DNA of 64,000 nucleotides from Syntrophobacterales bacterium (GCA_037388025.1 JARRKO010000001.1:32473-96472), one strand, 5' to 3'. Positions 3,552-62,774 are shown, counted from the first letter of the stretch. Notes: generated by a model from the sequence alone, not told the origin. Numbers and translations: made by a program.

Positions 3552-5504
3552 TTATTTGGCTTCGTCTTTAACCTCTTCGAACTCGGCCTCCACCACGTCC
3601 TCTTCGGGCTTTTTGGCTTCAGCTTCAGCTTCGGCTTCGGGTCCGGCTCCGGCGGCTCCAGCCCCGGCTCCGGCGGCACCCGCCCCGGCTCCGGCGGCAC
3701 CCGCCTGGGCATACATGGTTTCGGCGACCTTATGGGAGGCTTTCATGAGTTCGTCGCTCCGGCTCTTGATGGCCTGGACGTCAGAGCCCTCCATGGCCTC
3801 CCTGAGTTGTTTGATGTGGTCCTCAATGTTTGTTTTCGTGGCCGAATCCACCTTGTCTCCCAGATCACTGAGGGTTTTTTCAGTGGTGTAGATCAGAGAG
3901 TCAGCTTGGTTGCGCGCTTCGGCCAACTCCTTCTTTTTCTTGTCCTCCTCGCCGTGCATCTCCGCTTCTTTAACCAGTTTGTTGATCTCTTCCTCGCTCA
4001 AACCGCTGGAAGTGGTGATGCGGATGGACTGCTCCCGGCCGGTGCCCAGGTCCTTGGCCGAAACATGCACGATGCCGTTGGCGTCGATGTCAAAAGCCAC
4101 TTCGATCTGGGGAATACCCCGGGGGGCCGGCGGGATGCCGAAGAGTTCAAACTTGCCCAGGGTCTTGTTGTCCCCGGCCATTTCCCGTTCACCCTGGAGA
4201 ACATGAATGGTCACAGCCGTCTGATTATCCGCCGCGGTGGAAAAAACCTGACTTTTCCGGGTGGGGATGGTGGTATTGCGGTCGATGATGCGGGTGAACA
4301 CACCGCCTAAAGTCTCGATGCCCAGAGACAAAGGTGTCACATCCAGGAGCAGGATGTCCTTAACCTCGCCCTTAAGCACGCCAGCCTGGATGGCGGCGCC
4401 CACGGCCACCACCTCGTCCGGATTGACCCCCTTATGGGGTTCCTTGTTAAAGACGGATTTTACCTTCTCCTGGACTTTGGGCATACGGGTCATGCCCCCC
4501 ACCAGGATCACCTCATCGATATCCTGGGCGGACAGGTTGGCGTCCTTCAAAGCCTGCACGCAGGGACCTTCCACCTTGTCGATGAGATCACCCACCAGGC
4601 TTTCGAGTTTGGCCCGGCTGAGCTTGATGAGTAAGTGTTTGGGACCGGATGCGTCCGCCGTAACAAAGGGGAGGTTGACCTCGGTTTCCAAAGAGCCGGA
4701 CAGCTCCATTTTGGCCTTTTCCGCGGCTTCCTTGAGGCGCTGCAGAGCCATCTTGTCGTTGCGTAGATCAATGCCCTGGTCCTTGCGGAATTCGTCCGCC
4801 AGAAAATCCATGATCCGCTGGTCGAAATCCTCACCTCCCAGGTGGGTGTCGCCATTGGTGGATTTCACCTCGAAGACGCCCTCACCGATCTCCAGTATGG
4901 AGATGTCGAAGGTGCCGCCCCCCAGATCGAAAACCGCGATGCGCTCGTCTTTCTTCTTGTCCAGACCATAGGCCAAAGAAGCGGCGGTGGGCTCGTTGAT
5001 GATGCGGAGCACGTTCAGCCCGGCGATACGACCGGCATCCTTGGTAGCCTGGCGCTGGGCGTCATTGAAATAAGCCGGCACGGTGACCACGGCGTCGGTC
5101 ACTTTTTCCCCAAGGTATTCCTCCGCGGTTTGCTTCATCTTGGTAAGCACCATGGCGGAGATTTCCGCGGGACTATAGGTCCGGCCTTTGATTTCAATCG
5201 CCGCATCGCCGTTTTCGGCCCGGACGATTTTATAGGGCATGATTTTCACGTCCCGCTGCACCTCGGCGTCCTCGAACTTGCGGCCGATGAGGCGCTTTAC
5301 CGCGAAGACGGTGTTCAAAGGGTTGGTGATGGCCTGACGTTTGGCGATTTGTCCCACGAGACGCTCACCGCTATCCGTAAAAGCTACCACCGACGGGGTG
5401 GTGCGGCTGCCTTCCACATTGGTGATGACCTTGGGGTCGCCACTTTCCATTAGGGCCACACAAGAATTGGTTGTGCCTAAATCTATGCCGATGACTTTCG
5501 ACAT
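3552..5504 (-). CDS. dnaK: Molecular chaperone DnaK (Hsp70)
   Basis: 650-aa ORF with [17 protein letters not shown] and [11 protein letters not shown]. It lies downstream of grpE and hrcA. Confidence 0.98.
3643..3705 (-). repeat. 3 x 21-bp in-frame tandem repeat inside the dnaK 3' end
   Basis: Plus-strand units are CCGGCTCCGGCGGC(T/A)CC(A/C)GCC x3 and encode (AGAGAAG)n. An adjacent (GCTTCR)4 hexamer run at about 3615-3640 encodes (EA)n. Confidence 0.85.
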
Positions 5505-19194: not shown

Positions 19195-19196
19195 GG

Positions 19197-19276
19197 TTAG
19201 CTGTCAGCCATCAGCTTTCAGCAGTAAGCCGTCAGTGATCACTGGCAAAAACTAACTGCTGTCTGCTGACTGCTAT
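19197..19276. repeat. Heptamer tandem array forming an imperfect dyad (rodA-recR spacer)
   Basis: TTAGCTG TCAGCCA TCAGCTT TCAGCAG TAAGCCG TCAGTGA TCACTGG, then CTAACTGCTGTCTGCTGACTGCTATC in inverted orientation. The central palindrome is CAGTGATCACTG. Confidence 0.85.
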
Positions 19277-19278
19277 CT

Positions 19279-19884: not shown

Positions 19885-19908
19885 GTAGAATCCTTGAGTT
19901 AGATTTTC

Positions 19909-19954
19909 GTGGGAGGAGGGCCAGGGACCTGAGGCCCCTGCCCCCCTCCCCCAC
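19909..19954. repeat. G-rich ~45-nt imperfect palindrome (REP-like family G), copy 1
   Basis: GTGGGAGGAGGGCCAGGGACC-tga-GGCCCCTGCCCCCCTCCCCCAC, between the ybaB stop and the recR start. Confidence 0.8.
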
Positions 19955-19963
19955 AAAACTTCA

Positions 19964-20275
19964 TCAAAACAGACCGGGAATCTGCATGCCTCCGGTGAGT
20001 TTGGACATTTCTTGGGCCATCATTTCCCGGGAGCGGTTCAGGGCCTCGTTGACTGCGGCCAGGACGAGGTCCTGGAGCATTTCCACGTCGTCGGGGGTGG
20101 CCACTTCCGGTTCGATGCGCAGCGACACCAGTTCCTGGCGGCCGTTGACCACGGCCTCCACCATGCCGCCGCCGGCCTGGGCGCTGACGGTGCGTTCTCC
20201 CAGTTCTGCCTGCATTTCCTGCATCTTGCGCTGCAGGGCTTGGGCCTGTTTCATGAGGCCGCCGAGGTTTTTCAC
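19964..20275 (-). CDS. ybaB: Nucleoid-associated protein YbaB/EbfC
   Basis: Contains MKQAQALQRKMQEMQ. The GTG start at 20275 overlaps the dnaX stop (GTGA) and follows AGGAGG by 7 nt. The frame stays open upstream to 20308. Confidence 0.88.
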   Translation of the reverse strand: MKNLGGLMKQAQALQRKMQEMQAELGERTVSAQAGGGMVEAVVNGRQELVSLRIEPEVATPDDVEMLQDLVLAAVNEALNRSREMMAQEMSKLTGGMQIPGLF

Positions 20276-21714
20276 TCCGAGTCCTCCTTTTTTTCCGGCG
20301 CCAGCCACTGGCCCCCAAAAATTTCCAAGGCTTGCTGTTTGAGGGAGGCCAGATGGTCATTGAGATCGGTGAGTTGAGCCCGGGAAAGTTTGGCATACAG
20401 GGGGCCGCCCTCTTCCTTTTGGACAAAGGCCAGAAAAGCCTGCCAGGATTCCGCCAGGTTTTCCAAAGAGGGGGCGGCCAGTTCCAGGGGAGGGTCTGGA
20501 GCAGCCTGGGCTTGACCTTCAACATCGGTGGCGTAGGATATGGCCGGGAAAGGCGCCGGCGTGGCGGTTTGCAGGCGCTCTTCCAGAGATTTGAGGCGCT
20601 TGAGCCATTCATTCACCGGGGTCAGGGGCTCCAGGTGGATGAGACGCAGGAGCAGCACTTCCAGAGCCAGGCGAGGTTGGGGGGCCCGCTTGAGGTCTTC
20701 CTCGCCCTGGAGGAGCACATTCAGGAGATTGTGGAGGTGCGCCGCGGGCCAGACGCGGGACAGGCGGACGAGTTCCTCCCACTCGGAGTCGGCCACTTCC
20801 GCTAACCGCCGGGCCTCGGGGTGGAGGCCGGCCAGAAGCAGGTGTCGGGCATACTGCACCAGGTCTTGGTAAAAGCGCTTGAGATCATGGCCCTGGTTGT
20901 AAAGATCATCGATGAGTTCAAGGAGGGTGGGCCCGTCCCGGTGGACGATGGCCGTGAGCGCCGCCACCAGCGCCTTCCGGTCCGTCACCCCGAGTATTTT
21001 GGCGATCTCCGGCGCGCCCACCTGGTCGCCCCCGAAGGTGACCACCTGATCCAGGAAGCCCTGAGCGTCCCTGAGGCTCCCCTCTGCCTCCCGGGCGATG
21101 AGGGCCAGGCTGTCGGCGTCCAGGCTCCAGCCTTCCTGGTCCACCAGTTTGACGAGCTGCTCCTGGATGAGCAAAGTGGCGATGCGCCGGAAGTCATAGC
21201 GCTGGCAGCGGCTCATGATGGTCACTGGCACCTTGTGGGGCTCGGTGGTGGCCAGGATAAAAACCGCGTGGGCCGGGGGTTCCTCCAGGGTCTTGAGAAG
21301 GGCGTTAAAGGCCTCCTTGGTGAGCATGTGTACTTCGTCGATGATGTAAACCCTGAACTTGCCGTCCACCGGCAGGTACTTAATCTTTTCCCGGAGGTCT
21401 CGCACCTCGTCGATGCCCCGGTTGCTGGCGCCGTCGATTTCCAGCACATCCATGGAAGAGCCGCCGGTGATCTCCTGGCAGACCTCACAGGTATTACAGG
21501 GCTCCGGGGTGGGGCCGTGGACGCAGTTCAAGGCCTTGGCCAGGATGCGGGCCACCGAGGTTTTCCCCACACCCCGGGGGCCGGAGAACAGAAAGGCGTG
21601 GGCCACCCGTCCGGTAGCGATGGCATTCTGGAGCGTCTTGGTGATGGGCTCCTGGCCCACCACCTCCCCAAAAGACTGGGGACGCCATTTGCGGGCTAGT
21701 ACCTGGTAGGACAT
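20272..21714 (-). CDS. dnaX: DNA polymerase III subunit gamma/tau
   Basis: 480-aa ORF. Walker A GPRGVGKTS, Zn module CNTCEVCQEI, SRC motif IMSRCQRYDF. Confidence 0.95.
   Translation of the reverse strand: MSYQVLARKWRPQSFGEVVGQEPITKTLQNAIATGRVAHAFLFSGPRGVGKTSVARILAKALNCVHGPTPEPCNTCEVCQEITGGSSMDVLEIDGASNRGIDEVRDLREKIKYLPVDGKFRVYIIDEVHMLTKEAFNALLKTLEEPPAHAVFILATTEPHKVPVTIMSRCQRYDFRRIATLLIQEQLVKLVDQEGWSLDADSLALIAREAEGSLRDAQGFLDQVVTFGGDQVGAPEIAKILGVTDRKALVAALTAIVHRDGPTLLELIDDLYNQGHDLKRFYQDLVQYARHLLLAGLHPEARRLAEVADSEWEELVRLSRVWPAAHLHNLLNVLLQGEEDLKRAPQPRLALEVLLLRLIHLEPLTPVNEWLKRLKSLEERLQTATPAPFPAISYATDVEGQAQAAPDPPLELAAPSLENLAESWQAFLAFVQKEEGGPLYAKLSRAQLTDLNDHLASLKQQALEIFGGQWLAPEKKEDSE
20287..20293 (-). 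other. A_AAA_AAG slippery heptamer, in phase with dnaX, 5 codons before its stop
   Basis: dnaX zero frame reads CCG GAA AAA AAG GAG GAC TCG GAG TGA. The -1 frame is the open ybaB frame. Confidence 0.6.
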
Positions 21715-21717
21715 AAG

Positions 21718-21759
21718 GGGTTTTGGGTTTCGAGTTTTGAGTTTCGAGTTTCGAGTTTT
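21718..21759. repeat. Heptamer array (GGGTTTT GGGTTTC GAGTTTT GAGTTTC GAGTTTC GAGTTTT)
   Basis: Six phased 7-mers directly upstream of the dnaX start. It is the inverted partner of 21809-21840. Confidence 0.9.
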
Positions 21760-21808
21760 TTGGTCAAATTGTGGGACATGGGCAACGGTGCAGGCTGGGG
21801 ATTTTTCT

Positions 21809-21840
21809 AAAAACTTGAAACTACAAACTCAAAACTCAAC
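21809..21840. repeat. Heptamer array (AAAAACT TGAAACT ACAAACT CAAAACT CAAC), inverse of 21718-21759
   Basis: Reverse complement of the GAGTTTY units. It abuts the 3' end of tRNA-Ser(GGA). Confidence 0.9.
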
Positions 21841-21933
21841 TGGCGGAGAGAGAGGGATTCGAACCCTCGGTAAGTCTTTTGGACCTACACGCGATTTCCA
21901 GTCGCGCCCCTTCAGCCTCTCGGGCATCTCTCC
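21841..21933 (-). tRNA. tRNA-Ser (anticodon GGA)
   Basis: Minus strand reads GGAGAGATGCCCGAG...CGCGA-CTGGAAA-TCGCG...long variable arm...GGTTCGAATCCC...TCTCTCCGCCA. CCA is encoded. Confidence 0.93.
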
Positions 21934-21940
21934 GCGGTGA

Positions 21941-21975
21941 TTAGCAGTCAGCAGTTAGCAGTCAGCAGTCAGAAA
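21941..21975. repeat. Heptamer array (TTAGCAG TCAGCAG TTAGCAG TCAGCAG TCAGAAA)
   Basis: Five phased 7-mers starting 8 nt from the 5' end of tRNA-Ser(GGA). It is the inverted partner of 22067-22101. Confidence 0.9.
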
Positions 21976-22066
21976 TTATCCAAATAAACTTTCCTTTAAA
22001 ATTTGGCAATATTTATCCGACCAGGAGAAAATCGGCTAATTTTCTTAAAAATTTTACCTAAAAAAA

Positions 22067-22101
22067 CTGACTGCTAACTGCTGACAGCTGACTGCTCAAA
22101 A
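22067..22101. repeat. Heptamer array (CTGACTG CTAACTG CTGACAG CTGACTG CTCAAAA), inverse of 21941-21975
   Basis: Abuts the 3' end of tRNA-Ser(CGA). The two arms bracket a 91-bp very AT-rich core (21976-22066). Confidence 0.9.
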
Positions 22102-22195
22102 TGGCGGAGGGGGTGGGATTCGAACCCACGTGAGGGTGATTAGCCCCCAAGTCGATTTCGAGTCGACCCCGTTACGGCCTCTTCGGTACCCCTCC
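22102..22195 (-). tRNA. tRNA-Ser (anticodon CGA)
   Basis: Minus strand reads GGAGGGGTACCGAAG...GTCGA-CTCGAAA-TCGAC...long variable arm...GGTTCGAATCCC...CCCTCCGCCA. Confidence 0.93.
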
Positions 22196-22198
22196 GGT

Positions 22199-22233
22199 TT
22201 GAAGCTGTATGCTTTAAGTTATAAGCCTTAAGC
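22199..22233. repeat. Heptamer array (TTGAAGC TGTATGC TTTAAGT TATAAGC CTTAAGC)
   Basis: Five phased 7-mers immediately 5' of tRNA-Ser(CGA). Confidence 0.8.
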
Positions 22234-22248
22234 TTTTTTAAAAAATCT

Positions 22249-22269
22249 GTAGGGTGGGCACCGCCCACC
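22249..22269. repeat. GTAG-headed REP-like palindrome, copy 1 (possible tadA terminator)
   Basis: GTAG-GGTGGGC-ACC-GCCCACC lies 6 nt past the tadA stop. On the minus strand the hairpin is followed, 7 nt later, by TTTTTT. Confidence 0.75.
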
Positions 22270-22274
22270 GAAAT

Positions 22275-22739
22275 TTACTGCCTGGTTTTTCGCTTGGCCT
22301 GGAAAAATTGCTGCATCAGCTCCCGGCACTCGGCCTCCCGGACGCCGCCGGTTACTTCCAGCCGGTGGTTGAGCCGGGGGTCCTCGGGAATCCGGTAAAG
22401 GGACACGCACGCCCCGGCCTTGGGGTCCGGCGCGCCAAAAACCAGCCGCTGCACTCGAGCATATATCAAGGCCCCGGTGCACATGAGGCACGGTTCAATA
22501 GTAACATAGAGGGTAGTGCCGGGCAACCGGTAATTCCCCAGGATTTCAGCAGCCTGGCGCAAGACCAGGATCTCGGCATGGGCCGTGGGATCATTCAGCG
22601 AAATGGGAAAATTGTGGGCATGGGCCACCATCTTCCCCCCGTCTATGACCAACACCGCGCCCACCGGCACCTCACCCACACCCAGAGATAAACGGGCCTG
22701 GGCCAAGGCCTCCCCCATGTAATAATGGTCGTCGGTCAT
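22275..22739 (-). CDS. tadA: tRNA-specific adenosine deaminase
   Basis: Start re-picked at MTDDHYYMGEAL. Zinc motifs HAE and PCLMCTGA. Confidence 0.9.
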   Translation of the reverse strand: MTDDHYYMGEALAQARLSLGVGEVPVGAVLVIDGGKMVAHAHNFPISLNDPTAHAEILVLRQAAEILGNYRLPGTTLYVTIEPCLMCTGALIYARVQRLVFGAPDPKAGACVSLYRIPEDPRLNHRLEVTGGVREAECRELMQQFFQAKRKTRQ

Positions 22740-22766
22740 GGTTGGCTTCTGTTGAAAAGGATTTAC

Positions 22767-22846
22767 CACGGGCAGGAAGCCCGTGCTACCGGCTATAAGT
22801 AGGGGGCACAGGCTCTAAGCCTGTGCACACAGGCAAGATGCCTGTG
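22767..22846. repeat. Three tandem REP-like hairpins (CACGGGC-aggaa-GCCCGTG; GCACAGGC-tctaa-GCCTGTGC; CACAGGC-aagat-GCCTGTG)
   Basis: Direct reading. The stems are 7-8 bp with 5-nt loops. The middle copy is preceded by GTAG. Confidence 0.85.
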
Positions 22847-29400: not shown

Positions 29401-29483
29401 GGTGAGCTAATTAGTTCCTGGACTGATGCGATTTTTTCTTCTCTAAACTTGGCGTTAAATCATATTAAGCACTACAATCTTAA

Positions 29484-29507
29484 CTGACTACTGACTACTG
29501 ACTACTG
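29484..29507. repeat. Heptamer array (CTGACTA x3 + CTG)
   Basis: Perfect triplicate 7-mer in the convergent rpmB/relA spacer, ending 9 nt from the relA stop. Confidence 0.88.
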
Positions 29508-29515
29508 CCTTCCCC

Positions 29516-31672
29516 TCACGCCGTCATCCGCCGCACGGAAATCACTTCTTTTAACCGTTTCAGGGCCGCAAATACCCGATCCAGGTGGTGCTGATCGGTG
29601 ACCTGGATGGTAAAATTGGCGATACCCCGATGCTCGGCGGTGGTCACCACCGAGGCTTTGGTGACATTGACATCAGCGGATTTCAGGGCGCTGGAGATAT
29701 CAGCCAGGAGTCCCGGCTTATCCACGGTGACCACCTGAATGTTGGCCGGATACAGATCCCGGGAGTGGCCGTCCCACTCCGCCGGAATTTGCCGGAAGGA
29801 CTCGGTGCGGGCCAGATAGGCACAGTCGCTGCGGTGGATGGTGATGCCTTTGCCTCGGGTGATGTATCCCACAATGTTGTCCCCCGGGATGGGCTGGCAG
29901 CAGCTGGCCAAGCGCACCAGCATGTCCTGGAGGCCCTTGATGCGGATGGGCCCGGCTTCCTTGGGGGGGCGCACTTCAGCTTCAGCTTCGGGAGTCGGCG
30001 TTTCCTCGGCCGTGGCCGGAAAGAGGATTTTTTGGATGCGTCCGCCCACCTGGCCGGCGGATAGCTTGCCGTGACCGATGGCTTCAAAAAGGTCGTCCAC
30101 CCGGTGAAAAGACAGCTCCAGTGCCACCTTTTTCAGGTCGTCTCCATCTTTTAACATCTTCTGCAGGCTGGCGCCGCTTTTCCGAAGTTCCCGCTCCAAG
30201 AGTTCTTTGCCCAGGCCGATGCTTTGCTCCCGTTCCTTGGCCTTGAGAAATTGGCGAATCTTCGCCCGGGCCTTGGTGGTCTTGACGAATTGGAGCCAAT
30301 CCCGGTTGGGGCGCTGGTTGGGGTTGGTGGTAATTTCCACGATATCCCCGTTTTGCAGTTCGTGACGCAGCGGCACCATGCGGCCGTTGACCTTGGCTCC
30401 GGAGCAGGCGTTACCCACCTCAGTGTGGATGGCGTAGGCAAAGTCCACCGGGGTGGCTCCCCGGGGGAGTTCCTTGACTTCGCCCCGGGGAGTGAAAACA
30501 TAGACCTCTTCCGGAAAAAGCTCCAGGCGCATGCCCTCCAGGAATTCTTCCGGGGTTTTCAGCTCGGTCTGCAGGTCCACCAGTTGCCGCAGCCAGGCAA
30601 AGGTCTGGGCGTCCTTTTTCTCAAAGGGCTTTTTTTCCTTGTAAGTCCAGTGGGCCGCGATACCTTCCTCAGCAAGGATATGCATTTCCTGGGTGCGAAT
30701 CTGCACTTCCATGCGCTCGCCGTAAGGACCGATGACCGTGGTATGAATGGACTGGTAGAAATTGGCCTTGGGCATGCCGATATAGTCCTTGAGGCGCCCC
30801 GGCACCGGGCGGAAAAGGTTGTTGACCACGCCCAGGGCTTCATAGCACTCGCTCACGGTATTTAGAATGATGCGGAAAGCCAGAATGTCGTGGAGTTCAT
30901 CCAGCGAGATCTGTTGGGCCTGGAGCTTGCGATATATGCTATACAAGTGCTTCAGCCGGCCGCTGACTTCCCCCTGTAACCCATGCTCCGCCAGTTTATC
31001 TTTGAGGAGCTGACAAATCTCTTCGATGTAATTTTCCCGCTCCCCTTTTTTCAGGATTAAACCTTCCTGGATCTGATGGTAGGCTTCCGGCTCCAGAAAA
31101 AAGAAGGCCAGGTCTTCGAGTTCCGCTTTCAGGCGAAACATCCCCAGGCGGCCGGCCAGGGGCGCATAGATGTCCAGGGTCTCCCGGGCGATGCGCTTCT
31201 GCCGGGGAGGGTCCATGAAGCCTAAGGTCCGCATGTTGTGCACCCGGTCGGCCAGCTTTACCAGGAGCACCCGGATGTCCTGGGACATGGACAGGACCAT
31301 TTTGCGGATATACTCGGCCTGCTGGGTGGTCTTGTCCCCGAAAATCAATTGGCCGATCTTGGTTACCCCGTTGACGATATCGGTGACTTCTTCCCCGAAA
31401 TATTCATCCAGGTCATCCAGGCTGGCGGTGGTGTCCTCCACCGTGTCGTGGAGGAGACCGCAGGAAACAGTAACGGGTCCGAGACCCATTTGGGCCAGGA
31501 GGTAGGCTACTTCCAGGGGGTGAGACAGGTAGGGTTCGCCGTTGAGACGAATTTGCCCTTCGTGGGCTTTGGCCGAAAAGACGTAGGCTTTCTGAATCAA
31601 ACTGGTGTCCACCTCAGGATGGTGCTTGAGGACTTCTTCTTCGACATCCTGGAGGCGGATAATTCTAGTCAT
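29516..31672 (-). CDS. relA: Bifunctional (p)ppGpp synthetase/hydrolase (RelA/SpoT homologue)
   Basis: 718-aa ORF. HD motif LLHDTVEDT, synthetase [15 protein letters not shown] and C-terminal ACT-like domains. Confidence 0.95.
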
Positions 31673-33433: not shown

Positions 33434-33530
33434 ATTCAGTAATCCGTAATCTGTCATCAGTGATCAGTGATCAGTTAAAAGAAGCTTGTCATCGATTACT
33501 GATTATTGACAACTGAGTTACTGATTACTG
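33434..33530. repeat. Inverted heptamer arrays (xATCxGT x6 ... ATTACTG-type x5) around a 19-bp core
   Basis: ATTCAGT AATCCGT AATCTGT CATCAGT GATCAGT GATCAGT | core | ATTACTG ATTATTG ACAACTG AGTTACTG ATTACTG. Confidence 0.88.
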
Positions 33531-33586: not shown

Positions 33587-34588
33587 CTACCCGGGTCCCA
33601 GGTGGATAAGGGCCCATTCCAGCCAGACTCGGGGGTTGGTAGTGCTGGTCTTGATGGAAAGGTCGGCTTGATGCAGGAGTTTCAAGTGCGCCTCCAGAGC
33701 TGGCAAAGAAAATTTTTCGGCTTGCCGTCCCAGTTTTTTGACGATGCCGGGGGGCAGTTTTAGCAGCTTGGTTAAGTCGGCCGGAGAGGAGTGGGGCGCT
33801 GCTTCTTTATAGCGGATGAGAAGGCGCAGTTGCCGGGCCAGCATACCGAGAATGGACGCCGGCTTTTCACCCAGGTCCAGAAGATGATTCAGGGCCGCCA
33901 AGCGTCGGGTTAGCGCAAGTTCCCCCAAAGCATCGGTCAATGCGAAAATGTTATAGGAGCGACTGTGGCTGGCGAGCTGGCTCACCTGCTGGGGAGTGAG
34001 GGTGGCTTCGTCGCCGGCGAAGAGGGCCAGCTTCTTGAGCTCCTGGTGGAGTTCGGACAGGTTGTCGCCCACCACCTCCACCAGACGTTGGGCCGCGGCC
34101 GGGGTCAGGGTCTTGCCCAGGCGTTTGGCCTCCTGGGCCAGCCAGGGCAGAAGATCCCCTTCCCGCAGGCGAAAGAACCCCGCTACGGCCCCGTTTTTGG
34201 CAAGGCGTCCGAAAACGGGGTGTTTTTCCGCCTCCCGACCCTTCAAACTCGGGGCGGTGAGGATCACCAGACTGCGGGGGGCTGGATGATCAAGATAGGC
34301 GAGAACAGCGTTCAGTGCCTGGGCCGGATAGGTTTCCGCTCGGCGCAGGATGAGCAGTTGGCCGGAACCCCACAAGGTGGACAGGCGGGCCTGGGCGAAA
34401 AATTCCTCCAGACTCACTTCGGGGGCTTCCCGCACTACCCGGGATACCGCCTCGCCCCACTTCTCACTCAGGGCCTGTTCCAGACGGCGGAGGGCCCGCT
34501 CCATGAGGAATTCTTCTTCCCCGAAGAAGAGATAAACAGGCCTTAAACTCTGGCGTTCCAGGTGACGTTCCAAGATGGGGTGGGACAT
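33587..34588 (-). CDS. holA: DNA polymerase III delta subunit
   Basis: 333-aa ORF in leuS-lptE-holA synteny. The N-terminus LRPVYLFFGEEEFL is typical. Confidence 0.85.
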   Translation of the reverse strand: MSHPILERHLERQSLRPVYLFFGEEEFLMERALRRLEQALSEKWGEAVSRVVREAPEVSLEEFFAQARLSTLWGSGQLLILRRAETYPAQALNAVLAYLDHPAPRSLVILTAPSLKGREAEKHPVFGRLAKNGAVAGFFRLREGDLLPWLAQEAKRLGKTLTPAAAQRLVEVVGDNLSELHQELKKLALFAGDEATLTPQQVSQLASHSRSYNIFALTDALGELALTRRLAALNHLLDLGEKPASILGMLARQLRLLIRYKEAAPHSSPADLTKLLKLPPGIVKKLGRQAEKFSLPALEAHLKLLHQADLSIKTSTTNPRVWLEWALIHLGPG

Positions 34589-34593
34589 GTGAA

Positions 34594-34628
34594 AATTAGT
34601 GACCAGTGATCAGTGGTCAGTAAACAGC
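34594..34628. repeat. Heptamer array (AATTAGT GACCAGT GATCAGT GGTCAGT AAACAGC) occupying the lptE-holA spacer
   Basis: The 42-nt gap between the lptE stop (34631) and the holA start (34588) is almost entirely this array. Confidence 0.88.
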
Positions 34629-38704: not shown

Positions 38705-39378
38705 ATGGCGGAAGAGAAAAAATCATCATTCCCCATGCTCCCGGTAGCCCATTGGTGGTCTCTACGGGAAAAATTTAAGCAAAGCATCCCAGGGGTAGTA
38801 ACAGAAAATTATTTGGCCACGATTCTTAATATTCAGGCAAATTCCGCCAGAGTAAACATTCTACCATCTCTAAAAACAATTGGCCTTATAGATTCAGATG
38901 GCAAAACAAATCAAGAATTGGCAAAAGCCTGGAGGGATGATTCAAATTACGCTGAGGTATGCAAAGAAATAAGAGAAAGAATCTATCCAGAAGACTTATT
39001 TTCAGCAGTTCCAAATCCTAGTGAAGATAAGGAGGCTGTTAAAAGATGGTTTGCAAATCAAACTGGAAGTGGAGTAAGTGCAGTAAATAAAATGGCAAGC
39101 TTTTACATTACCTTGGCGAAGCTGATTCATCAAAGAAACCAGAAAAGAAAGCTGTAAGAGAACCAGCCTTAAAAAAACCAAAAATGGCACCAATGGCAAT
39201 AGAGAAAAAAGATCAAGAAAAGAAGCCAATAGATATGCACCCTCCAACACTTACTGACATCCATCCAAGTTTTCCCAGTGTGCATATAAATTTGGAGATA
39301 CACATCTCATCTGACGCCACACCAGACCAAATTGATAAGATTTTTGAGAGCATGGCCAAGCATATATACAATAAATAG
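38705..39378 (+). pseudogene. DUF5343-like gene split by a 1-nt frameshift (track ORFs 38705-39157 + 39184-39378)
   Basis: The second frame is open from 39091. Restoring one G in GCG(G)AAGCT near 39118 joins ...FYITLAEADSSKKPEKK... into a single ~220-aa ORF. The family assignment is from recall. Confidence 0.5.
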
Positions 39379-39385
39379 ATAATCA

Positions 39386-39792
39386 ATGAAGTCTGCTGCG
39401 CTCAATGCTCTAGAAATTGCTAAGAAGATTAAGGCTGAGGTTCCTGTCAGATTTGTTCCACCCTCCGAAGGAACCAAACCTCTTAGCCAAAATATTTTGC
39501 CTCATGCAATGGTTGCAGGAACAAGAGGTTATATCGAAAGAATAGTTTTCCAGATAAACGGTTCTTATGAAAAAGGGTGGTTTGATGCTTGTGCTGTAAT
39601 GATGCGACGTCTCCTAGAAACACTGTTTATTGAGTAAGAAATACCAAGAAAGCATTACCAAAACTTAAAAATTTGGGAGACCAGTCAGCACATAGCAGAA
39701 GATATGTAGCACACAGAGAAGACATCGATAAGAATGTTTCAAATTTCAGAACAATATGCCAAGAACTACTTTTTTTGGCTGAATTAAAATAA
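39386..39792 (+). pseudogene. DUF4145-like helical protein gene with an internal out-of-frame deletion
   Basis: The N-part ends ...CAVMMRRLLETLFIE*. The C-part continues in another frame as KALPKLKNLGDQSAHSRRYVAHREDID...LLFLAELK*. Confidence 0.45.
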
Positions 39793-39817
39793 ATTTAAAT
39801 CAAAATTAGGAGTGAGC

Positions 39818-41963: not shown

Positions 41964-41998
41964 CAGTTCAAAGTTCAAGGTTCAAAGTTCAAAGTCAG
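41964..41998. repeat. Heptamer array (CAGTTCA AAGTTCA AGGTTCA AAGTTCA AAGTCAG)
   Basis: Direct reading in the convergent tyrS/ddl spacer. Confidence 0.85.
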
Positions 41999-48538: not shown

Positions 48539-49537
48539 TTATTCTGTTCTGTTACTATCCAGCGTCTGCCGAATAATAAACCGCGGCCGGCCCCGGACTT
48601 CGTTATAGATGCGGCCCACATAGGCGCCGATGAGGGCCAGGCCGAAGGTATTGAGCCCCACGAAGACAAAAAGGATGGCGAACAGGGTGAAGACCCCCTC
48701 TACTTCGGGCCCTACCACCAACCGGCGTACGAAGAGGAAGAGGCCGAAGAGAAATCCCAACAGGGCAATGGCCACGCCCATGGCCCCCACCACGTGTATG
48801 GGCAGGTGGGAAAAGCCGGTCATGAGGTCGAAGTTCAGGCGCAGGAGTTTAAACAGGTTGTATTTGGATTTGCCCCGTTCCCGCTCGGCGTGGCCCACGG
48901 GAATCTCCGCCACCCGGTGGGAAAAGAGGTTGGCCAAGGCTGGGATGAAGCTGGATGACTCCTGGCATTGATTGATGCTGTCCACCACTTCCCGGCGATA
49001 GGCCCGCAGCATACAGCCGTAGTCCTTGAGTTTGACCCCGGTAACCCAGGACATGGTGCGGTTCATGAGATAGGAGGGGATACGCCTGAGCCAGGAATCC
49101 AGGCGGTTCTCCCGCCAGCCTCCCACGGTGTCATAGCCTTCCTCCAACTTGACCACCAGTTTGGGGATGTCTTCCGGCAGGTTCTGGAGGTCGGCGTCCA
49201 GGGTAACGATGATCTGGCCCCGGGCGGCCTGAAAACCGGCGAAGATGGCCTGATGCTGGCCGAAATTGCGGAAGAACTGCACCGCCCGGATGTGCTCCGG
49301 CTGTCGCTGGTGCAGGTCAGTGAGCATCTCCCAGGAGCGGTCGCTGGAGCCGTCGTCCACAAAAATGATTTCGAAAGACCGGCCGTGAGCTGTCAGAGTG
49401 GCCAACAGGCGCTCGCTCAGCTCCGCCAGGTTCTCTTGTTCGTTGTAAGCCGGGATAACCACGGAGATATAAGGGGCAGGTGCCGCCTTGGAGGCGGGCA
49501 GGGCCGCGCTGGAGGGAATCATGCCTGGTTCGCGCAA
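48539..49537 (-). CDS. arnC: Undecaprenyl-phosphate 4-deoxy-4-formamido-L-arabinose transferase (ArnC-like GT2)
   Basis: 332-aa ORF with SVVIPAYNEQENL, VDDGSSD, TLDADLQN and DYGCMLRAYRR. Two C-terminal TM helices. Confidence 0.87.
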   Translation of the reverse strand: MREPGMIPSSAALPASKAAPAPYISVVIPAYNEQENLAELSERLLATLTAHGRSFEIIFVDDGSSDRSWEMLTDLHQRQPEHIRAVQFFRNFGQHQAIFAGFQAARGQIIVTLDADLQNLPEDIPKLVVKLEEGYDTVGGWRENRLDSWLRRIPSYLMNRTMSWVTGVKLKDYGCMLRAYRREVVDSINQCQESSSFIPALANLFSHRVAEIPVGHAERERGKSKYNLFKLLRLNFDLMTGFSHLPIHVVGAMGVAIALLGFLFGLFLFVRRLVVGPEVEGVFTLFAILFVFVGLNTFGLALIGAYVGRIYNEVRGRPRFIIRQTLDSNRTE

Positions 49538-49576
49538 GGGAAAATGTCAGCCCTTAGCTGGAAAATATAAAAATAA

Positions 49577-49943
49577 GGCGGAGCAGACCATAAGCCGGGT
49601 TCTGTGCCGGCCTGACGGCCGGTGGTGATCATTCCTCTGGGACCCCGGTTACCCGGGGCCTCACGCGACCTACCCAGGAGCTCGGGCGGGCCACCCTTGG
49701 CGCTCCCCTATTTGGTCTTGCTCCAGGCGGGGTTTTCCTAGCTGCCGGTGTCGCCACCGGCACTGGTGAGCTCTTACCTCACCTTTTCACCCTTACCGTG
49801 GACCGATCCACGGCGGTCTGGTCTCTGTGGCACTTTCCGTGGGGTCGCCCCCCCTGGGTATTACCCAGCGCCTTGCCCTGTGGAGCCCGGACTTTCCTCC
49901 AGCTGCGCCGGACGCAGCCAGCGATCACCTGGTCTGCTCCGCG
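49577..49943 (-). ncRNA. rnpB: RNase P RNA, bacterial type A
   Basis: Minus strand reads GCGGAGCAGACC...GGAGGAAAGTCCGGGCTCCACAGGGCA...GGTAAGGGTGAAAAGGTGAGGTAAGAGCTCACCAG...ACAGAACCCGGCTTATGGTCTGCTCCGCC. The P1 stem closes over 12 bp. Confidence 0.92.
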
Positions 49944-54474: not shown

Positions 54475-56240
54475 CCATTTTCTCCTCTCGTGGTAGGGGG
54501 CGTTTTCAACGCCTCAAGTTGCCAATCAATTTCCTGTTTTTGGGCTAAAAGAGTTTGACTCTCGGGGTCCCGGGCCAGCTTTTCCTTCAAACCTCGCTGG
54601 AGCTGTTGCAAGTGCCGCCGCCGAAAAGCCCGCCGCCAATCATCCGCTACTAAATCAGGGGGGACTTGGGCAAATTCCCCCTCTCCCAGGACCAGGGCGC
54701 AAATCTCTTGTTTCCGGTTTTCCTCCTCCAAGTGGTCCAAAAGGTAACTAACATCCAAGGTCTGATGTTGGGCACAGTACGTAGCGATGAGGCGCAGTAG
54801 TTCCTGCAGGTCGGGGTCTTCCATCTCCTCGGCCCACTCCGCCAGCTCTTCCGCGGGCACTGCCCCCGGGTGGTTCAGGACCCAGCGCAGCAGTCCTTTC
54901 TCCAAATTGATGGCGACTCCCCGTCCCCCGTCCCGTCCCTTTTGGAAGGCCGGAGCCGTCTGGGTGAGGCTCAGGCGCAGGTCCGTTTCCGCCACGCTGA
55001 GGCGTTCGGCGGCGTACTTGAGCCACAAGCCCTGTTCCACCGGGTCCTGCAGGGCCTGAAAATAAGGCCGCAGTTCCTCTGTCACCTTGACCCGGCCTTC
55101 GATGGACAGGCCATGGGCTGCCACCAGGCTGTCCAATAGAAAAGCCAACCAGGGTTGGGCCGCGTCCCAGGGGGAGGCAAAGAGGTCCGGTCCGTGTGCC
55201 TGGACATAGTTGTCCGGGTCCATACCCGCGGGCAGGGGAATGACCCTCACCGGCAAGCCTTCCTGGCCGAACAGGGGGAAGGCCCGACACATGGCCCGGG
55301 ATCCCGCCGGGTCCCCATCGAAGACCAGCACCACTCGGGACACCAGACTTTTCAGCAGCCGCACCTGTTCCCGGGTGAGGGCCGTGCCTAGGGTAGCCAC
55401 CACGGGCATAACACCGTGCACCCGCAAAGCCAGCAGATCGAGGTAGCCCTCCACCACCAGGGCCAGGTCCTGCTTTCTGATGGCTTCCCGGCCCTGAGGC
55501 AAGCCATAGAGTAAGCGGCCCTTGGAATAGAGCGGACTTTCGGGGGAATTGAGATATTTGGGTTCCCCCTCGCCGACGATGCGGCCCCCGAAGGCTACCA
55601 CCCGTTCCTGCCGATCGAAGATGGGAAAAATGACCCGGTCCCGGAAACGGTCGTAGTAACCGCCCGAGGCCCGGGGCAGCAGCAGTCCCACTTCCGCGGC
55701 CGCATCCGGGGATAGGCCCCGGCTTTGGAGGTGCCGCCGCAGGCCGTTCCATTCCGGGGGCGCGTAGCCCAGGCCATAGGTCTGGATGACTTCGGGGGTG
55801 AGACCCCGGTTGGCCAGATAGTTCCGGGCCGGCTGGCCGGCTTTGCCCTCCAGGGTGGCCTGATAAAACGCGAGGGCCTCCCTATGCAGGTCATAAAAAA
55901 CCTGGCGTTTCTTGGCCCGGCGGGACTCTTCGGGGCCCAAATCCCTTAAGGCCAGGGTGATGCCATACCGCCGGGCCAGCTCCAGGGCCGCCTCGGGAAA
56001 GGACAGGCGGTGGTGTTGCATGACAAAAGAGATGACGTTGCCCCCGGCGCCACAGCCGAAGCAGTAGAAAATGCCCTTGTCCGGGGACACGGTGAACGAG
56101 GGCTTGGTGTCGGCGTGGAAGGGGCAGAGGCCCAGGAGGTTCTTGCCCCGGCGCTCCAGCTTGACGTATTGCCCCACCACCTCTTCGATGGAGGCGGCCT
56201 CTCTGATCTCCAGAAGCTTGTCTTCCGGGATGTAGGCCAT
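54471..56240 (-). CDS. dnaG: DNA primase
   Basis: 589-aa ORF. Zn-finger [30 protein letters not shown] and a Toprim domain. It overlaps rpoD by 4 nt. Confidence 0.96.
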
Positions 56241-56256
56241 ATCACTAAGTAGTGGT

Positions 56257-56305
56257 CAGCAGTTAGCAGTCAGCAGTTAGTTTTGAGTTTTTAGTTTCGA
56301 GTTAT
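56257..56305. repeat. Hybrid heptamer array (TCAGCAG TTAGCAG TCAGCAG | TTAGTTT TGAGTTT TTAGTTT CGAGTTA)
   Basis: The two unit types seen separately at the tRNA-Ser locus are joined here in one continuous 7-nt phase. Confidence 0.9.
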
Positions 56306-56306
56306 T

Positions 56307-56324
56307 GTAGTGGGCACCGCCCAC
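56307..56324. repeat. GTAG-headed REP-like palindrome, copy 2
   Basis: GTAG-TGGGC-ACC-GCCCA(C) lies 9 nt past the mutS2 stop. It has the same core as 22249-22269. Confidence 0.8.
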
Positions 56325-56332
56325 CATTCTTA

Positions 56333-61339: not shown

Positions 61340-61373
61340 TATCAGCAAATCTGGACCAGTAAACCTGTAGCCG
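61340..61373 (+). repeat. 3'-flank element copy A (TATCAGCAAATCTGGACC-N9-GTAGCCG)
   Basis: The 18-mer is identical to 62722-62739. It starts 13 nt after the stop of the TPR gene. Confidence 0.85.
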
Positions 61374-61556
61374 TATGCTTTAGGCTGCGCCTGTATCACT
61401 GTCAAAGTAAACCTTTTTGAAGAAGAACAACCCCTGGAAGAAAAGGTGGTCTCCGGCCACGGCCGGGACAAGATTCTGCTGGTGGACCTCTCCGGCCTGA
61501 TCAGAAAATGTTTGGAAATATTAAAGAGAAACGGGCGGAAACCGATAAAGAAATAA
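61371..61556 (+). pseudogene. Possible relic of a signal-peptide-peptidase (SppA-type) gene
   Basis: An open frame without a start codon encodes ...LFEEEQPLEEKVVSGHGRDKILLVDLSGLI..., resembling the segment preceding the SppA protease domain (from recall). It then diverges and stops. Confidence 0.25.
61522..61548 (+). promoter_or_regulatory. Candidate sigma28 (FliA) promoter upstream of flgM
   Basis: TAAA-N15-ACCGATAA compared with the consensus TAAA-N15-GCCGATAA, about 100 nt upstream of the flgM ATG. Confidence 0.45.
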
Positions 61557-62721: not shown

Positions 62722-62754
62722 TATCAGCAAATCTGGACCTGAGAAAGGTAGCCG
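62722..62754 (+). repeat. 3'-flank element copy B (TATCAGCAAATCTGGACC-N8-GTAGCCG)
   Basis: Starts 18 nt after the stop of the secreted-protein gene. Looser similarity to copy A continues for about 25 nt more. Confidence 0.85.
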
Positions 62755-62774
62755 CAGGTTTCAGCTTGCACCCC

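Follow-up and report, generated by a model that had tools for sequence, protein, structure and literature searches.

Short tandemly repeated repetitive (STRR) elements built of heptamers have been known since about 1990, STRR1-3 having the heptamers CCCCAGT, TTGGTCA and CAACAGT. Cyanobacterial STRRs are 7-bp tandem repeats that form intergenic hairpins, e.g. between hupS and hupL in Nostoc/Anabaena, for which roles in transcript stability, translational coupling and termination were proposed but never proven (PMC2670836), and repeats of this type serve strain fingerprinting (PMC5088731). The TAACTGA arrays of marine Beggiatoaceae, some Cyanobacteria and Bacteroidetes stand in forward orientation immediately ahead of start codons with no Shine-Dalgarno (SD) sequence, with one dominant heptamer and one inverted repeat only among 170 sets (MacGregor 2015; PMC4679880). 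The survey of long simple sequence repeats (LSSRs, units of 5-11 nt) by Mrazek et al. (2007), as relayed in PMC4679880, found heptamers to be the commonest unit and proposed polymerase slippage as their origin. Here we describe heptamer arrays in a stretch of 64,000 nt from a Syntrophobacterales bacterium (GCA_037388025.1 JARRKO010000001.1:32473-96472; 58% GC, 88% coding), hereafter the window, and in particular the inverted arrays, or arms, that surround two tRNA-Ser genes between a tadA-like gene and dnaX. We propose, with a probability of roughly 0.55, that these arms are local cases of genome-wide, hypervariable heptamer arrays of the STRR/LSSR type, here in Desulfobaccales, with a role in post-transcriptional punctuation.

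All features of the locus lie on the minus strand, where they follow each other in the order given below. Arrays were located with Tandem Repeats Finder (TRF) and an inverted-repeat search, and the GTAG-headed element resembles the repetitive extragenic palindromic (REP) sequences of other bacteria.

22275-22769, minus strand: tadA-like tRNA adenosine deaminase gene, the upstream neighbour (Pfam MafB19-deam 5.4e-33, dCMP_cyt_deam_1 2.3e-25)
22250-22270, minus strand: REP-like palindrome just past the tadA stop, a 7-bp hairpin reading GTAG and GGTGGGC-ACC-GCCCACC on the plus strand
22199-22233, minus strand: degenerate heptamer array seen in the sequence, ending 3 nt ahead of the 5′ end of tRNA-Ser(CGA); sense strand AAGCTTA AGGCTTA TAACTTA AAGCATA CAGCTTC
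22102-22195, minus strand: tRNA-Ser(CGA), CCA encoded (ARAGORN; Rfam RF00005, 51.7 bits)
22067-22101, minus strand: unit A 5′ arm of about 4.4 AGCAGTY-type units (GAGCAGT CAGCTGT CAGCAGT TAGCAGT CAG), beginning 4 nt past CCA (TRF period 7; inverted repeats)
21976-22066, minus strand: core A, a 91-nt AT-rich loop of 25% GC (composition)
21941-21975, minus strand: unit A 3′ arm (CTGACTG CTGACTG CTAACTG CTGACTG CTAATCA), ending 8 nt ahead of the 5′ end of tRNA-Ser(GGA) (TRF; inverted repeats)
21841-21933, minus strand: tRNA-Ser(GGA), CCA encoded (ARAGORN; Rfam, 54.7 bits)
21809-21840, minus strand: unit B 5′ arm (GAGTTTT GAGTTTG TAGTTTC AAGTTTT TAG), beginning 3 nt past CCA (TRF; inverted repeats; fold)
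21760-21808, minus strand: core B, a 49-nt loop with the conserved motif CCAGCC..CACCGTTGCC..ATTTGACC, single copy in the window
21718-21759, minus strand: unit B 3′ arm and SD-less dnaX leader (AAAACTC GAAACTC GAAACTC AAAACTC GAAACCC AAAACCC), ending 3 nt ahead of the ATG (TRF; inverted repeats; sequence)
20272-21714, minus strand: dnaX, the downstream neighbour, with its ATG at 21714 (Pfam; best homolog 93% identical)

TRF reported period-7 arrays of 4.3-4.6 copies each at 21727-21758, 21810-21839, 21943-21972 and 22067-22096. The inverted-repeat search paired 21732-21760 with 21809-21837 (29 nt, 90% complementary, 48 nt apart) and 21930-21972 with 22067-22109 (43 nt, 81% complementary, including a 23-nt stretch at 96%). 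An earlier sequence-only reading of this interval had described two tRNA-Ser genes amid inverted heptamer arrays, and ARAGORN, Rfam, TRF and the inverted-repeat search all confirm this, as the sequence does the location of the arms within 0-8 nt of tRNA ends. Pairing in several 7-nt registers, also claimed, is borne out by alternative inverted pairings offset by multiples of 7 nt. The same reading overstated its case in placing nearly every non-tRNA base in a repeat, since the repeats it listed hold 200 of the 373 non-tRNA bases (54%), and of its two AT-rich cores core A deserves the name whereas core B has 51% GC. Its third array, at 22199-22233, is degenerate and was missed by both TRF and the period-7 scan, but the orthologous loci carry a clear GCTTANN array in that place.

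RNA folding predicts long stems across both spacers, with about 30 pairs in stem A (spacer A, -64.6 kcal/mol, z -7.65 vs shuffles) and about 28 in stem B (spacer B, -32.0 kcal/mol, z -6.29), and the whole 581-nt stretch folds at z -9.8. No terminator-like site, with a GC-rich stem and a U run right behind it, was found in 21600-22400, the GTAG palindrome not being a canonical intrinsic terminator, and a sigma-70 consensus scan gave no minus-strand promoter, its sole site in core A lying on the plus strand and thus antisense. When 21600-22400 was searched against Rfam with permissive E-values, only sub-threshold matches were obtained beyond the tRNAs, mostly to plant miRNA hairpin models, which mean a long hairpin and nothing further. 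The dnaX open reading frame (ORF) encodes 480 aa against 538 aa in homologs; a frameshift as the cause was ruled out, as tblastn aligns the C-terminal 26 aa at the end of the same ORF and points to an in-frame loss of about 58 linker residues relative to the relatives. DnaX of the related locus L082 (462 aa) looks interrupted, with pieces in three frames, possibly through an assembly error.

The arrays are not specific to tRNAs. In a scan of the window for periods 4-12, period 7 gave nine segments and every other period none or one. At a relaxed threshold all nine period-7 arrays, at six loci, were intergenic, though only 12% of the window is non-coding, and period-5 and period-6 repeats from the same relaxed search fell nearly all inside genes. 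Outside the tRNA locus the arrays and their companions are as follows.

19195-19278, minus strand: inverted pair filling the recR-ftsW/rodA spacer, with (AGCAGNY)3 and (NCTGNTG)4 arms (minimum free energy -31.3, z -2.6 (-2.64))
29481-29512, minus strand: single CAGTAGT x3 array directly past the stop codon at 29516, the plus strand reading TAACTGACTACTGAC... (TRF)
33436-33530, minus strand: inverted pair in an intergenic spacer, first CAGTAAT type, next CTGATCA type (TRF; fold z -4.41)
34598-34621, minus strand: single ACTG-type array directly 5′ of the start codon at 34588 (TRF)
41964-41996: array between convergent genes
56255-56325, minus strand: REP-like palindrome, then single AAACTCR and CTGCTRA arrays before the start codon at 56240 (TRF; fold)

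The hairpin at 19195-19278 extends from 4 nt past the recR stop codon to 3 nt ahead of the AUG, whereas for the leader with single arrays at 56255-56303 the prediction is a lack of structure (z -0.5). AGCAGTY and GAGTTTY, two words of the tRNA locus, are found again at these two places. Array density per 100 kb amounts to 10.9 in the window, 24.5 in the related loci and 2.6 in 80 distant dnaX loci. This genome- and lineage-wide nature of the heptamer arrays is a point that the sequence-only reading did not record.

Compared with the systems outlined above, the arrays resemble STRRs in their 7-bp units, few tandem copies, occurrence in many intergenic spacers, inverted arrangement yielding hairpins between co-directional genes, and variability in relatives. 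The features by which STRRs and heptanucleotide LSSRs are recognised, namely at least three tandem 7-nt copies, intergenic dispersal, variation from relative to relative and inverted arrays capable of forming hairpins, were all found here. The host differs, being a member of Desulfobaccales (Thermodesulfobacteriota) with 58% GC and not a heterocystous cyanobacterium, and the present arms are demonstrably anchored to gene ends despite inserted DNA. With the TAACTGA arrays they share the heptamer array itself (2-6 copies there), the nearly exclusive intergenic location, the position before SD-less starts and the patchy phylogeny. The TAACTGA unit is represented by related words only, i.e. CTAACTG/CTGACTG in the unit A arm, TAACTGACTACTGAC / TAACTGAC at 29481 and (CTAACTG)3 before ftsW in the related locus L103, and most of the present arrays use other heptamers. 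In contrast to the TAACTGA sets, many heptamer words are in use here and inverted pairing is common, while flanking tRNA or SRP (signal recognition particle) RNA genes are not described in PMC4679880, which contains no mention of Deltaproteobacteria, Desulfo- taxa or Nitrospirota. The likeness to LSSRs lies in heptanucleotide units as the most abundant class, the sporadic distribution among taxa and the proposed slippage origin; the Mrazek survey, to the extent that it is relayed in that paper, is a statistical census without mirror-oriented gene-border arrays or hairpins. We found no report in the literature of heptamer hairpins of the STRR/LSSR type in Desulfobaccales.

The arrays are placed and oriented with respect to gene borders. 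Behind an upstream gene or tRNA, units of the RGT type (GAGTTTY, AGCAGTY, CAGTNNN) begin within a few nt of its 3′ end, and their complements (RAAACTC, RACTGCT) end a few nt before the 5′ end of the next tRNA or before an SD-less start codon. Within the window, forward arrays end a few nt before the SD-less starts of dnaX, ftsW and the genes starting at 34588 and 56240. The nearby atpF start, taken as a control, has GAGGTG and no array. The same borders were examined in more than 20 orthologous loci with 72-93% DnaX identity (L numbers below), which were retrieved as contigs encoding DnaX homologs and, in a single metagenome scan, by means of the tRNA-Ser(GGA) 3′ half. Those DnaX homologs that carry a taxon name, at up to 93% identity, are assigned to Desulfobaccales, Desulfobacca or Thermodesulfobacteriota, and by sequence homology the host lineage can be given as Desulfobaccales. 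RAAACYS-type arrays stand directly before the dnaX ATG in 12 of 17 distinct Desulfobaccales sequences and NACTGNN-type arrays before the ftsW ATG in 9 of 10 distinct relatives, the one in L088 being short. None of them has an SD motif, and on the sense strand the arrays at both starts are ACY-type without exception. Position and strand polarity before these two genes are held down to 72% DnaX identity while the sequence changes. Past the recR stop, CAGT-type arrays occur in the window, L081, L083/L084 and L104.

That the arms belong to the flanking genes follows from their persistence when DNA is inserted between them. In L083/L084 (AGCAGTY)4 after recR and (ACTGCTR)4 before ftsW persist with 1.2 kb including genes in between, in L082 the recR-side and ftsW-side arms persist at a distance of 0.57 kb, and in L103 the dnaX-proximal array is kept despite two inserted genes. 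Where the spacer is short, the paired arrays are predicted to fold into a single long hairpin, so that the upstream 3′ end comes to lie beside the downstream 5′ end. In all seven inverted pairs with arms of unlike G and C content the G-rich arm comes first (5′) and the C-rich arm second (3′), three of the pairs being in the window (unit B, 33436-33530 and a non-heptameric pair between ybaB and recR) and four in three distant loci (L001, L019, L048). The non-heptameric hairpin (window 19885-19963, minus strand) shares this polarity with the heptamer pairs, its 5′ arm being G-rich (GTGGGGGAGGGGGG) and its 3′ arm C-rich (CCCTCCTCCCAC), and is also found in L081 (2385-2518), L082 (4930-5146) and L083 (4925-5027).

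Both tRNA-Ser genes are nearly invariant among the relatives while their surroundings vary, and the 48-nt 3′ part of tRNA-Ser(GGA) is identical in 23 of 23 related loci compared. Alignment of the tadA-dnaX interval, a comparison put forward in the sequence-only reading, reveals arms and cores that are present, shortened, unpaired or absent between relatives. The turnover proceeds in steps of 7 nt. In L081, the closest relative (DnaX 93%), whose spacers are nearly identical to those of L093 and L097, each unit A arm is exactly 14 nt shorter than in the window; the 3′ arm is degenerate there, and that of the window is homogenised relative to it. Core A shows few substitutions in L081, L093 and L097 and is retained only in part in L105 and L103, but the long stem between the tRNAs is lost in L081, where the short arms do not pair (z -0.4), and it is weak in L101, L094 (z -0.8) and L098 (z -0.1). 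Elsewhere spacer A holds AGCAGNN and NNCTGCT arms around different cores with weak to moderate stems (L105/L095, L101, L103/L094, L091; z -3.4 to -0.8) or GAGTTTY arms (L089, L098), while L083/L084 and L087 have an inverted GGGCGGGCACTGCCCGCC palindrome doublet in place of the 3′ arm. In L082, L085 and L090 spacer A is armless and contains a small ORF. Since L082 and L085 carry nearly identical tRNAs without any arms around them, the sequence comparison indicates that the arms are dispensable for tRNA maturation.

Spacer B has the same arm type and a recognisable core in the window, L081, L088, L092 and L095, core B being conserved in L081, L092 and L095 and partly in L088. GT-rich arrays occupy the position of the unit B 5′ arm in L081, L088, L092, L095, L096, L089, L090, L101 and L104. 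The arms read CGGTTTT/AAAACCG in L096 and L089 and CGTTTTT/AAAAACG in L104, all three with long AT-rich cores, so that heptamer words change jointly in both arms between lineages (GAGTTTY/RAAACTC, CGGTTTT/AAAACCG, CGTTTTT/AAAAACG). For six unit-B sequences RNAalifold returned a conserved stem of 23 pairs. In several lineages one or two genes are inserted in spacer B, and across loci the core between the arms measures from 12 nt to more than 1 kb. At the position of the third array, clear GCTTANN arrays are present in L083, L093, L098 and L094 and AAAACCG arrays in L087 and L089. The tadA-dnaX interval is a hotspot of small gene insertions in the relatives, which fall between arm positions: between the tRNAs, an ORF of about 119 aa that has no annotation (L082 1983-2342; in L085/L090 upstream of tRNA-Ser(GGA)) and, before dnaX, a glyoxalase/bleomycin-resistance-like gene and another ORF (L083 2502-2942; L103 3124-3940). 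A conserved short ORF (about 58 aa, MGLTYISKNCEIYLGE...KPKK) is found just upstream of tRNA-Ser(GGA) in L104 (3480-3656), L086 and L100; in L104 it sits between both tRNA-Ser genes, and no Pfam match is recorded for it.

Beyond the order, period-7 arrays are about 4-10 times rarer at the 80 distant dnaX loci, yet present in a few lineages. Inverted heptamer pairs occur upstream of the SRP RNA gene and between it and dnaX in a Nitrospira (L048, 320-665) and in a metagenome-assembled genome (MAG) of the delta group (L001, 130-455), and between SRP RNA and dnaX in a member of the Verrucomicrobiota (L075, 3905-4000). In a proteobacterial MAG (L033, 3910-3998) a GCCTTTT array precedes dnaX in the same spacer. 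These SRP RNA-dnaX arrays are mostly inverted pairs ending beside the dnaX start codon. A member of the Nitrospiraceae (L019) has GAGTTTT/AAAACTC arms past recR and CGTGAGG/CCTCACG arms between ybaB and recR. The synteny with Bacillus invoked in the sequence-only reading holds for its SRP RNA-dnaX part, three Bacillaceae loci having SRP RNA directly ahead of dnaX. Period-7 arrays upstream of dnaX were found in 5 of 79 distant loci, against about two expected for any intergenic spacer; the link is with the intergenic DNA of array-rich genomes and not with dnaX itself. A dnaX leader hairpin conserved across bacteria was considered and rejected, strong structure being predicted in only 5 of 79 distant loci.

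The interpretation that we favour, of hypervariable arrays that punctuate transcripts, comprises several steps. Arrays would grow and shrink in 7-nt steps through slipped-strand mispairing, either selection acting on the hairpin or repair templated by it would keep the arms complementary, and the loop would tolerate or attract inserted DNA. Such upkeep is suggested by the fact that both unit A arms differ by the same 14 nt and that arm words switch together. The hairpins would then punctuate a tadA-tRNA-tRNA-dnaX-ybaB-recR-ftsW transcript post-transcriptionally; once this has been processed, both the upstream 3′ end and the downstream 5′ end would be shielded by the hairpin, which would also occlude or couple the G-poor, SD-less leader. 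We infer that the hairpins may stabilise or couple adjacent RNAs, by analogy with the cyanobacterial STRR hairpins, for which the same roles were proposed and never proven.

Several observations weigh against this interpretation. Base-pair covariation is weak, a compensatory change being seen in 1 of the 23 consensus pairs of the six unit-B sequences. Cognate arm duplexes are more stable than non-cognate ones (-30.9 vs -26.3 kcal/mol) at a permutation p of 0.085, which is no more than suggestive, and the test is blurred by G-U tolerance and shared ancestry. The words GAGTTTY, AGCAGTY, CAGTRAT and GCTTANN differ from the STRR1-3 sequences. Polarity with respect to transcription is partly confounded with replication direction, the minus strand carrying most array-flanked genes of the window. 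Because arrays before tRNA genes cannot act in translation initiation, a single function may not suit every site, and every functional step is deduced from sequence. Finally, the persistence of arrays at a site could be mutational, by self-perpetuating slippage, and not selected.

This last point leads to the view that the arrays are a functionless by-product of slippage, which persists wherever non-coding DNA tolerates it, pairs and polarity being a matter of mutational mechanics. The speed at which copy number, heptamer word and presence change between close relatives fits such an origin, as do the scarcity of compensatory pair changes, the lack of a special dnaX link across phyla (5 of 79 loci observed vs about two expected) and the status of heptamers as the commonest unit of long simple sequence repeats in most genomes, with slippage proposed (Mrazek 2007, as relayed in PMC4679880). 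It is nonetheless an unlikely account. Against it stand the retention of position and strand polarity before dnaX and ftsW down to 72% DnaX identity, the change of both unit A arms by the same 14 nt, the order of G-rich and C-rich arms in all seven distinguishable pairs, and the start-proximal arrays that stand in place of an SD sequence. The arm-core-arm unit might instead be a miniature inverted-repeat transposable element (MITE), non-autonomous, with heptameric terminal inverted repeats and a habit of landing by tRNA 3′ ends, as the sequence-only reading had suggested among its alternatives. For unit B this has partial support. L090 and L099 carry a clean 106-nt arm-core-arm block 3 nt past tRNA-Ser(GGA); L085, L082 and L091, otherwise collinear in their flanks, lack it. 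When reversed, the L090 core matches core B of the window, to which it is homologous, at 28 of 40 positions, a score reached by 6 of 5000 shuffles, and a hidden Markov model built without L090 gives 61.7 bits in reverse against 25.7 forward, a core-only model matching the reverse strand only. Whole units can thus be gained, lost or flipped, and the wide range of core lengths and the presence of terminal inverted repeats (arms 81-96% complementary, though variable arrays and not fixed ends) agree with mobility. On the other hand, no target-site duplication can be derived at the L090 vs L085 junction (CTT|...|ATGCG) and core B is single in the 64 kb window, nhmmer giving no further copies in the fetched loci beyond the orthologous position, where a MITE would have multiple dispersed copies. 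Recombination between inverted arms, or excision of the hairpin, would also fit the core flip without transposition. Unlike fixed terminal repeats the arms vary in sequence and length by site and lineage, they stay with the flanking genes upon insertion, and lone single arms stand at gene starts or ends, all of which makes a MITE a doubtful description.

It had also been envisaged that the arm-arm duplexes are dedicated RNase III cleavage sites, separating the tRNAs and dnaX from one precursor in the manner of the rRNA-operon stalks. Long near-perfect duplexes in a precursor with stable RNAs are indeed common to both systems: the predicted duplexes of 25-35 bp are long enough for RNase III (at least 20 bp) and far above shuffle stability, they start 0-8 nt from tRNA ends, and the lack of any terminator-like or minus-strand promoter-like site between tadA and dnaX fits co-transcription. 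The stability part of the claim therefore stands, and what the sequence-only reading had named as a refutation, pairing of the arms on a par with shuffled sequence, did not occur, but the rRNA-stalk analogy fails, because the arms pair across spacer (cores A and B) and enclose no mature RNA, and because the stems are unconserved in close relatives, stem A being missing or weak in four of them and the arms absent in L082 and L085. Similar hairpins moreover recur between protein genes (recR-ftsW, 33436-33530), where stable-RNA processing is not needed. A dedicated, conserved RNase III stalk function is not supported and we regard it as distinctly improbable, although the long duplexes, if transcribed, may well be cut as a by-product. 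A signal at the DNA level, with AT-rich cores as promoters of the tRNAs or dnaX and arrays as binding sites of a DNA-binding regulator, seems highly improbable. In its favour are the 25% GC of core A, the TTGCCA-N17-TATTTG that the sequence-only reading had pointed out there, the absence of another obvious promoter for tRNA-Ser(GGA), and the TTTTGAA/TTCAAAA heptamers near and upstream of Nostoc recF and recO, which influence reporter expression (bioRxiv 10.1101/2022.06.06.494920). The hexamers are present on the minus strand at 21981-22009 but fail the sigma-70 consensus scan, whose single match is antisense, and they read TTGCGA and TATCTG in L081; the promoter claim is not supported. Core B occurs in both orientations, cores are replaced in relatives by unrelated sequence, REP doublets or genes, and single arrays, by their strand polarity with respect to the neighbouring gene, point to a reading at the RNA level or in the direction of transcription. 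A sigma-70 or sigma-54 promoter in core B was discarded, as no acceptable hexamer spacing was visible by eye and the core is found in both orientations.

The palindromes that accompany the arrays are a different kind of repeat. REP sequences and their doublets (REPINs) are GTAG-headed palindromes mobilised by REP-associated tyrosine transposases (RAYTs). The window palindromes resemble them in the GTAG head, the imperfect hairpin, the position past gene ends, the recurrence in relatives and the inverted doublets (L083, L087). The heptamer hairpins are likewise extragenic, hairpin-forming and variable, but their arms are tandem arrays without a fixed palindrome or GTAG head. The GTAG palindrome noticed before tRNA-Ser(CGA) is indeed present at 22250-22270 and has a second copy at 56304-56325, a count reached by 0 of 100 shuffles, and it is retained after tadA in L083, L093, L094, L098 and L101. 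Being GTAG-headed, imperfectly palindromic, extragenic and repeated, it fits the REP definition by sequence. GTAG and GGTGGGCACCGCCCACC palindromes sit past gene ends in the window copies and in L083 (2094-2115, 2326-2390), L087 and L084 (4125-4185), and the related palindromes GGGCGGGCACTGCCCGCC and GGTGCGTTTCACGCACC form REPIN-like inverted doublets in relatives. A second REP-like family, GTAGCCGCAGGCTTCAGCCTGCG, occurs in the window at 61367-61389 and 62748-62770 with 3 mismatches each (0 expected by chance) and in several copies in L083, L089, L096, L098 and L103.

Three further features of the window were recorded. A class A bacterial RNase P RNA gene lies at 49576-49940 (minus strand, 322 bits), with a 21-nt tandem repeat x2 downstream at 49474-49515 and no heptamer arrays inside; the RNase P RNA genes of heterocystous cyanobacteria reportedly carry STRRs, to go by the title of a 1997 study by Vioque. 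Another 21-nt tandem repeat, CCGGCTCCGGCGGCACCCGCC, at 3643-3705 (3 copies, 95% matches), is in frame within a long ORF and probably encodes a repeated peptide. A low-GC island at 39100-39800 (about 42% GC vs 58%) consists of short, apparently foreign or decayed coding sequence with no ORF of at least 100 aa and may be a remnant of horizontally acquired DNA.

One may speculate that the arrays form part of an RNA punctuation code shared across phyla and read by a periodic, sequence-tolerant RNA-binding factor, in which ACY arrays mark and load SD-less 5′ leaders and RGT arrays mark 3′ ends; we consider this a long shot. ACY arrays would then serve translation or RNase P access, and pairing of the arms would switch the downstream gene between a coupled (masked) and a free state. 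If true, such a code would be shared by Desulfobaccales, Nitrospirota, Verrucomicrobiota, cyanobacteria and Beggiatoaceae, and it would explain why tRNA-Ser or SRP RNA genes upstream of dnaX are embedded in arrays in several phyla.

Since heptamer arrays were found in Desulfobaccales and in sampled loci of Nitrospirota and Verrucomicrobiota, they are not a peculiarity of cyanobacteria or giant sulfur bacteria. For annotation it follows that hairpins beside tRNAs are not to be taken as dedicated processing signals or as MITEs of a single family. The ortholog series of the tadA-tRNA-tRNA-dnaX-ybaB-recR-ftsW locus constitutes a natural experiment for hypotheses on stability, coupling and processing. 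What these arrays add to the picture is that position and strand polarity at gene borders persist while sequence, copy number and the intervening DNA turn over.

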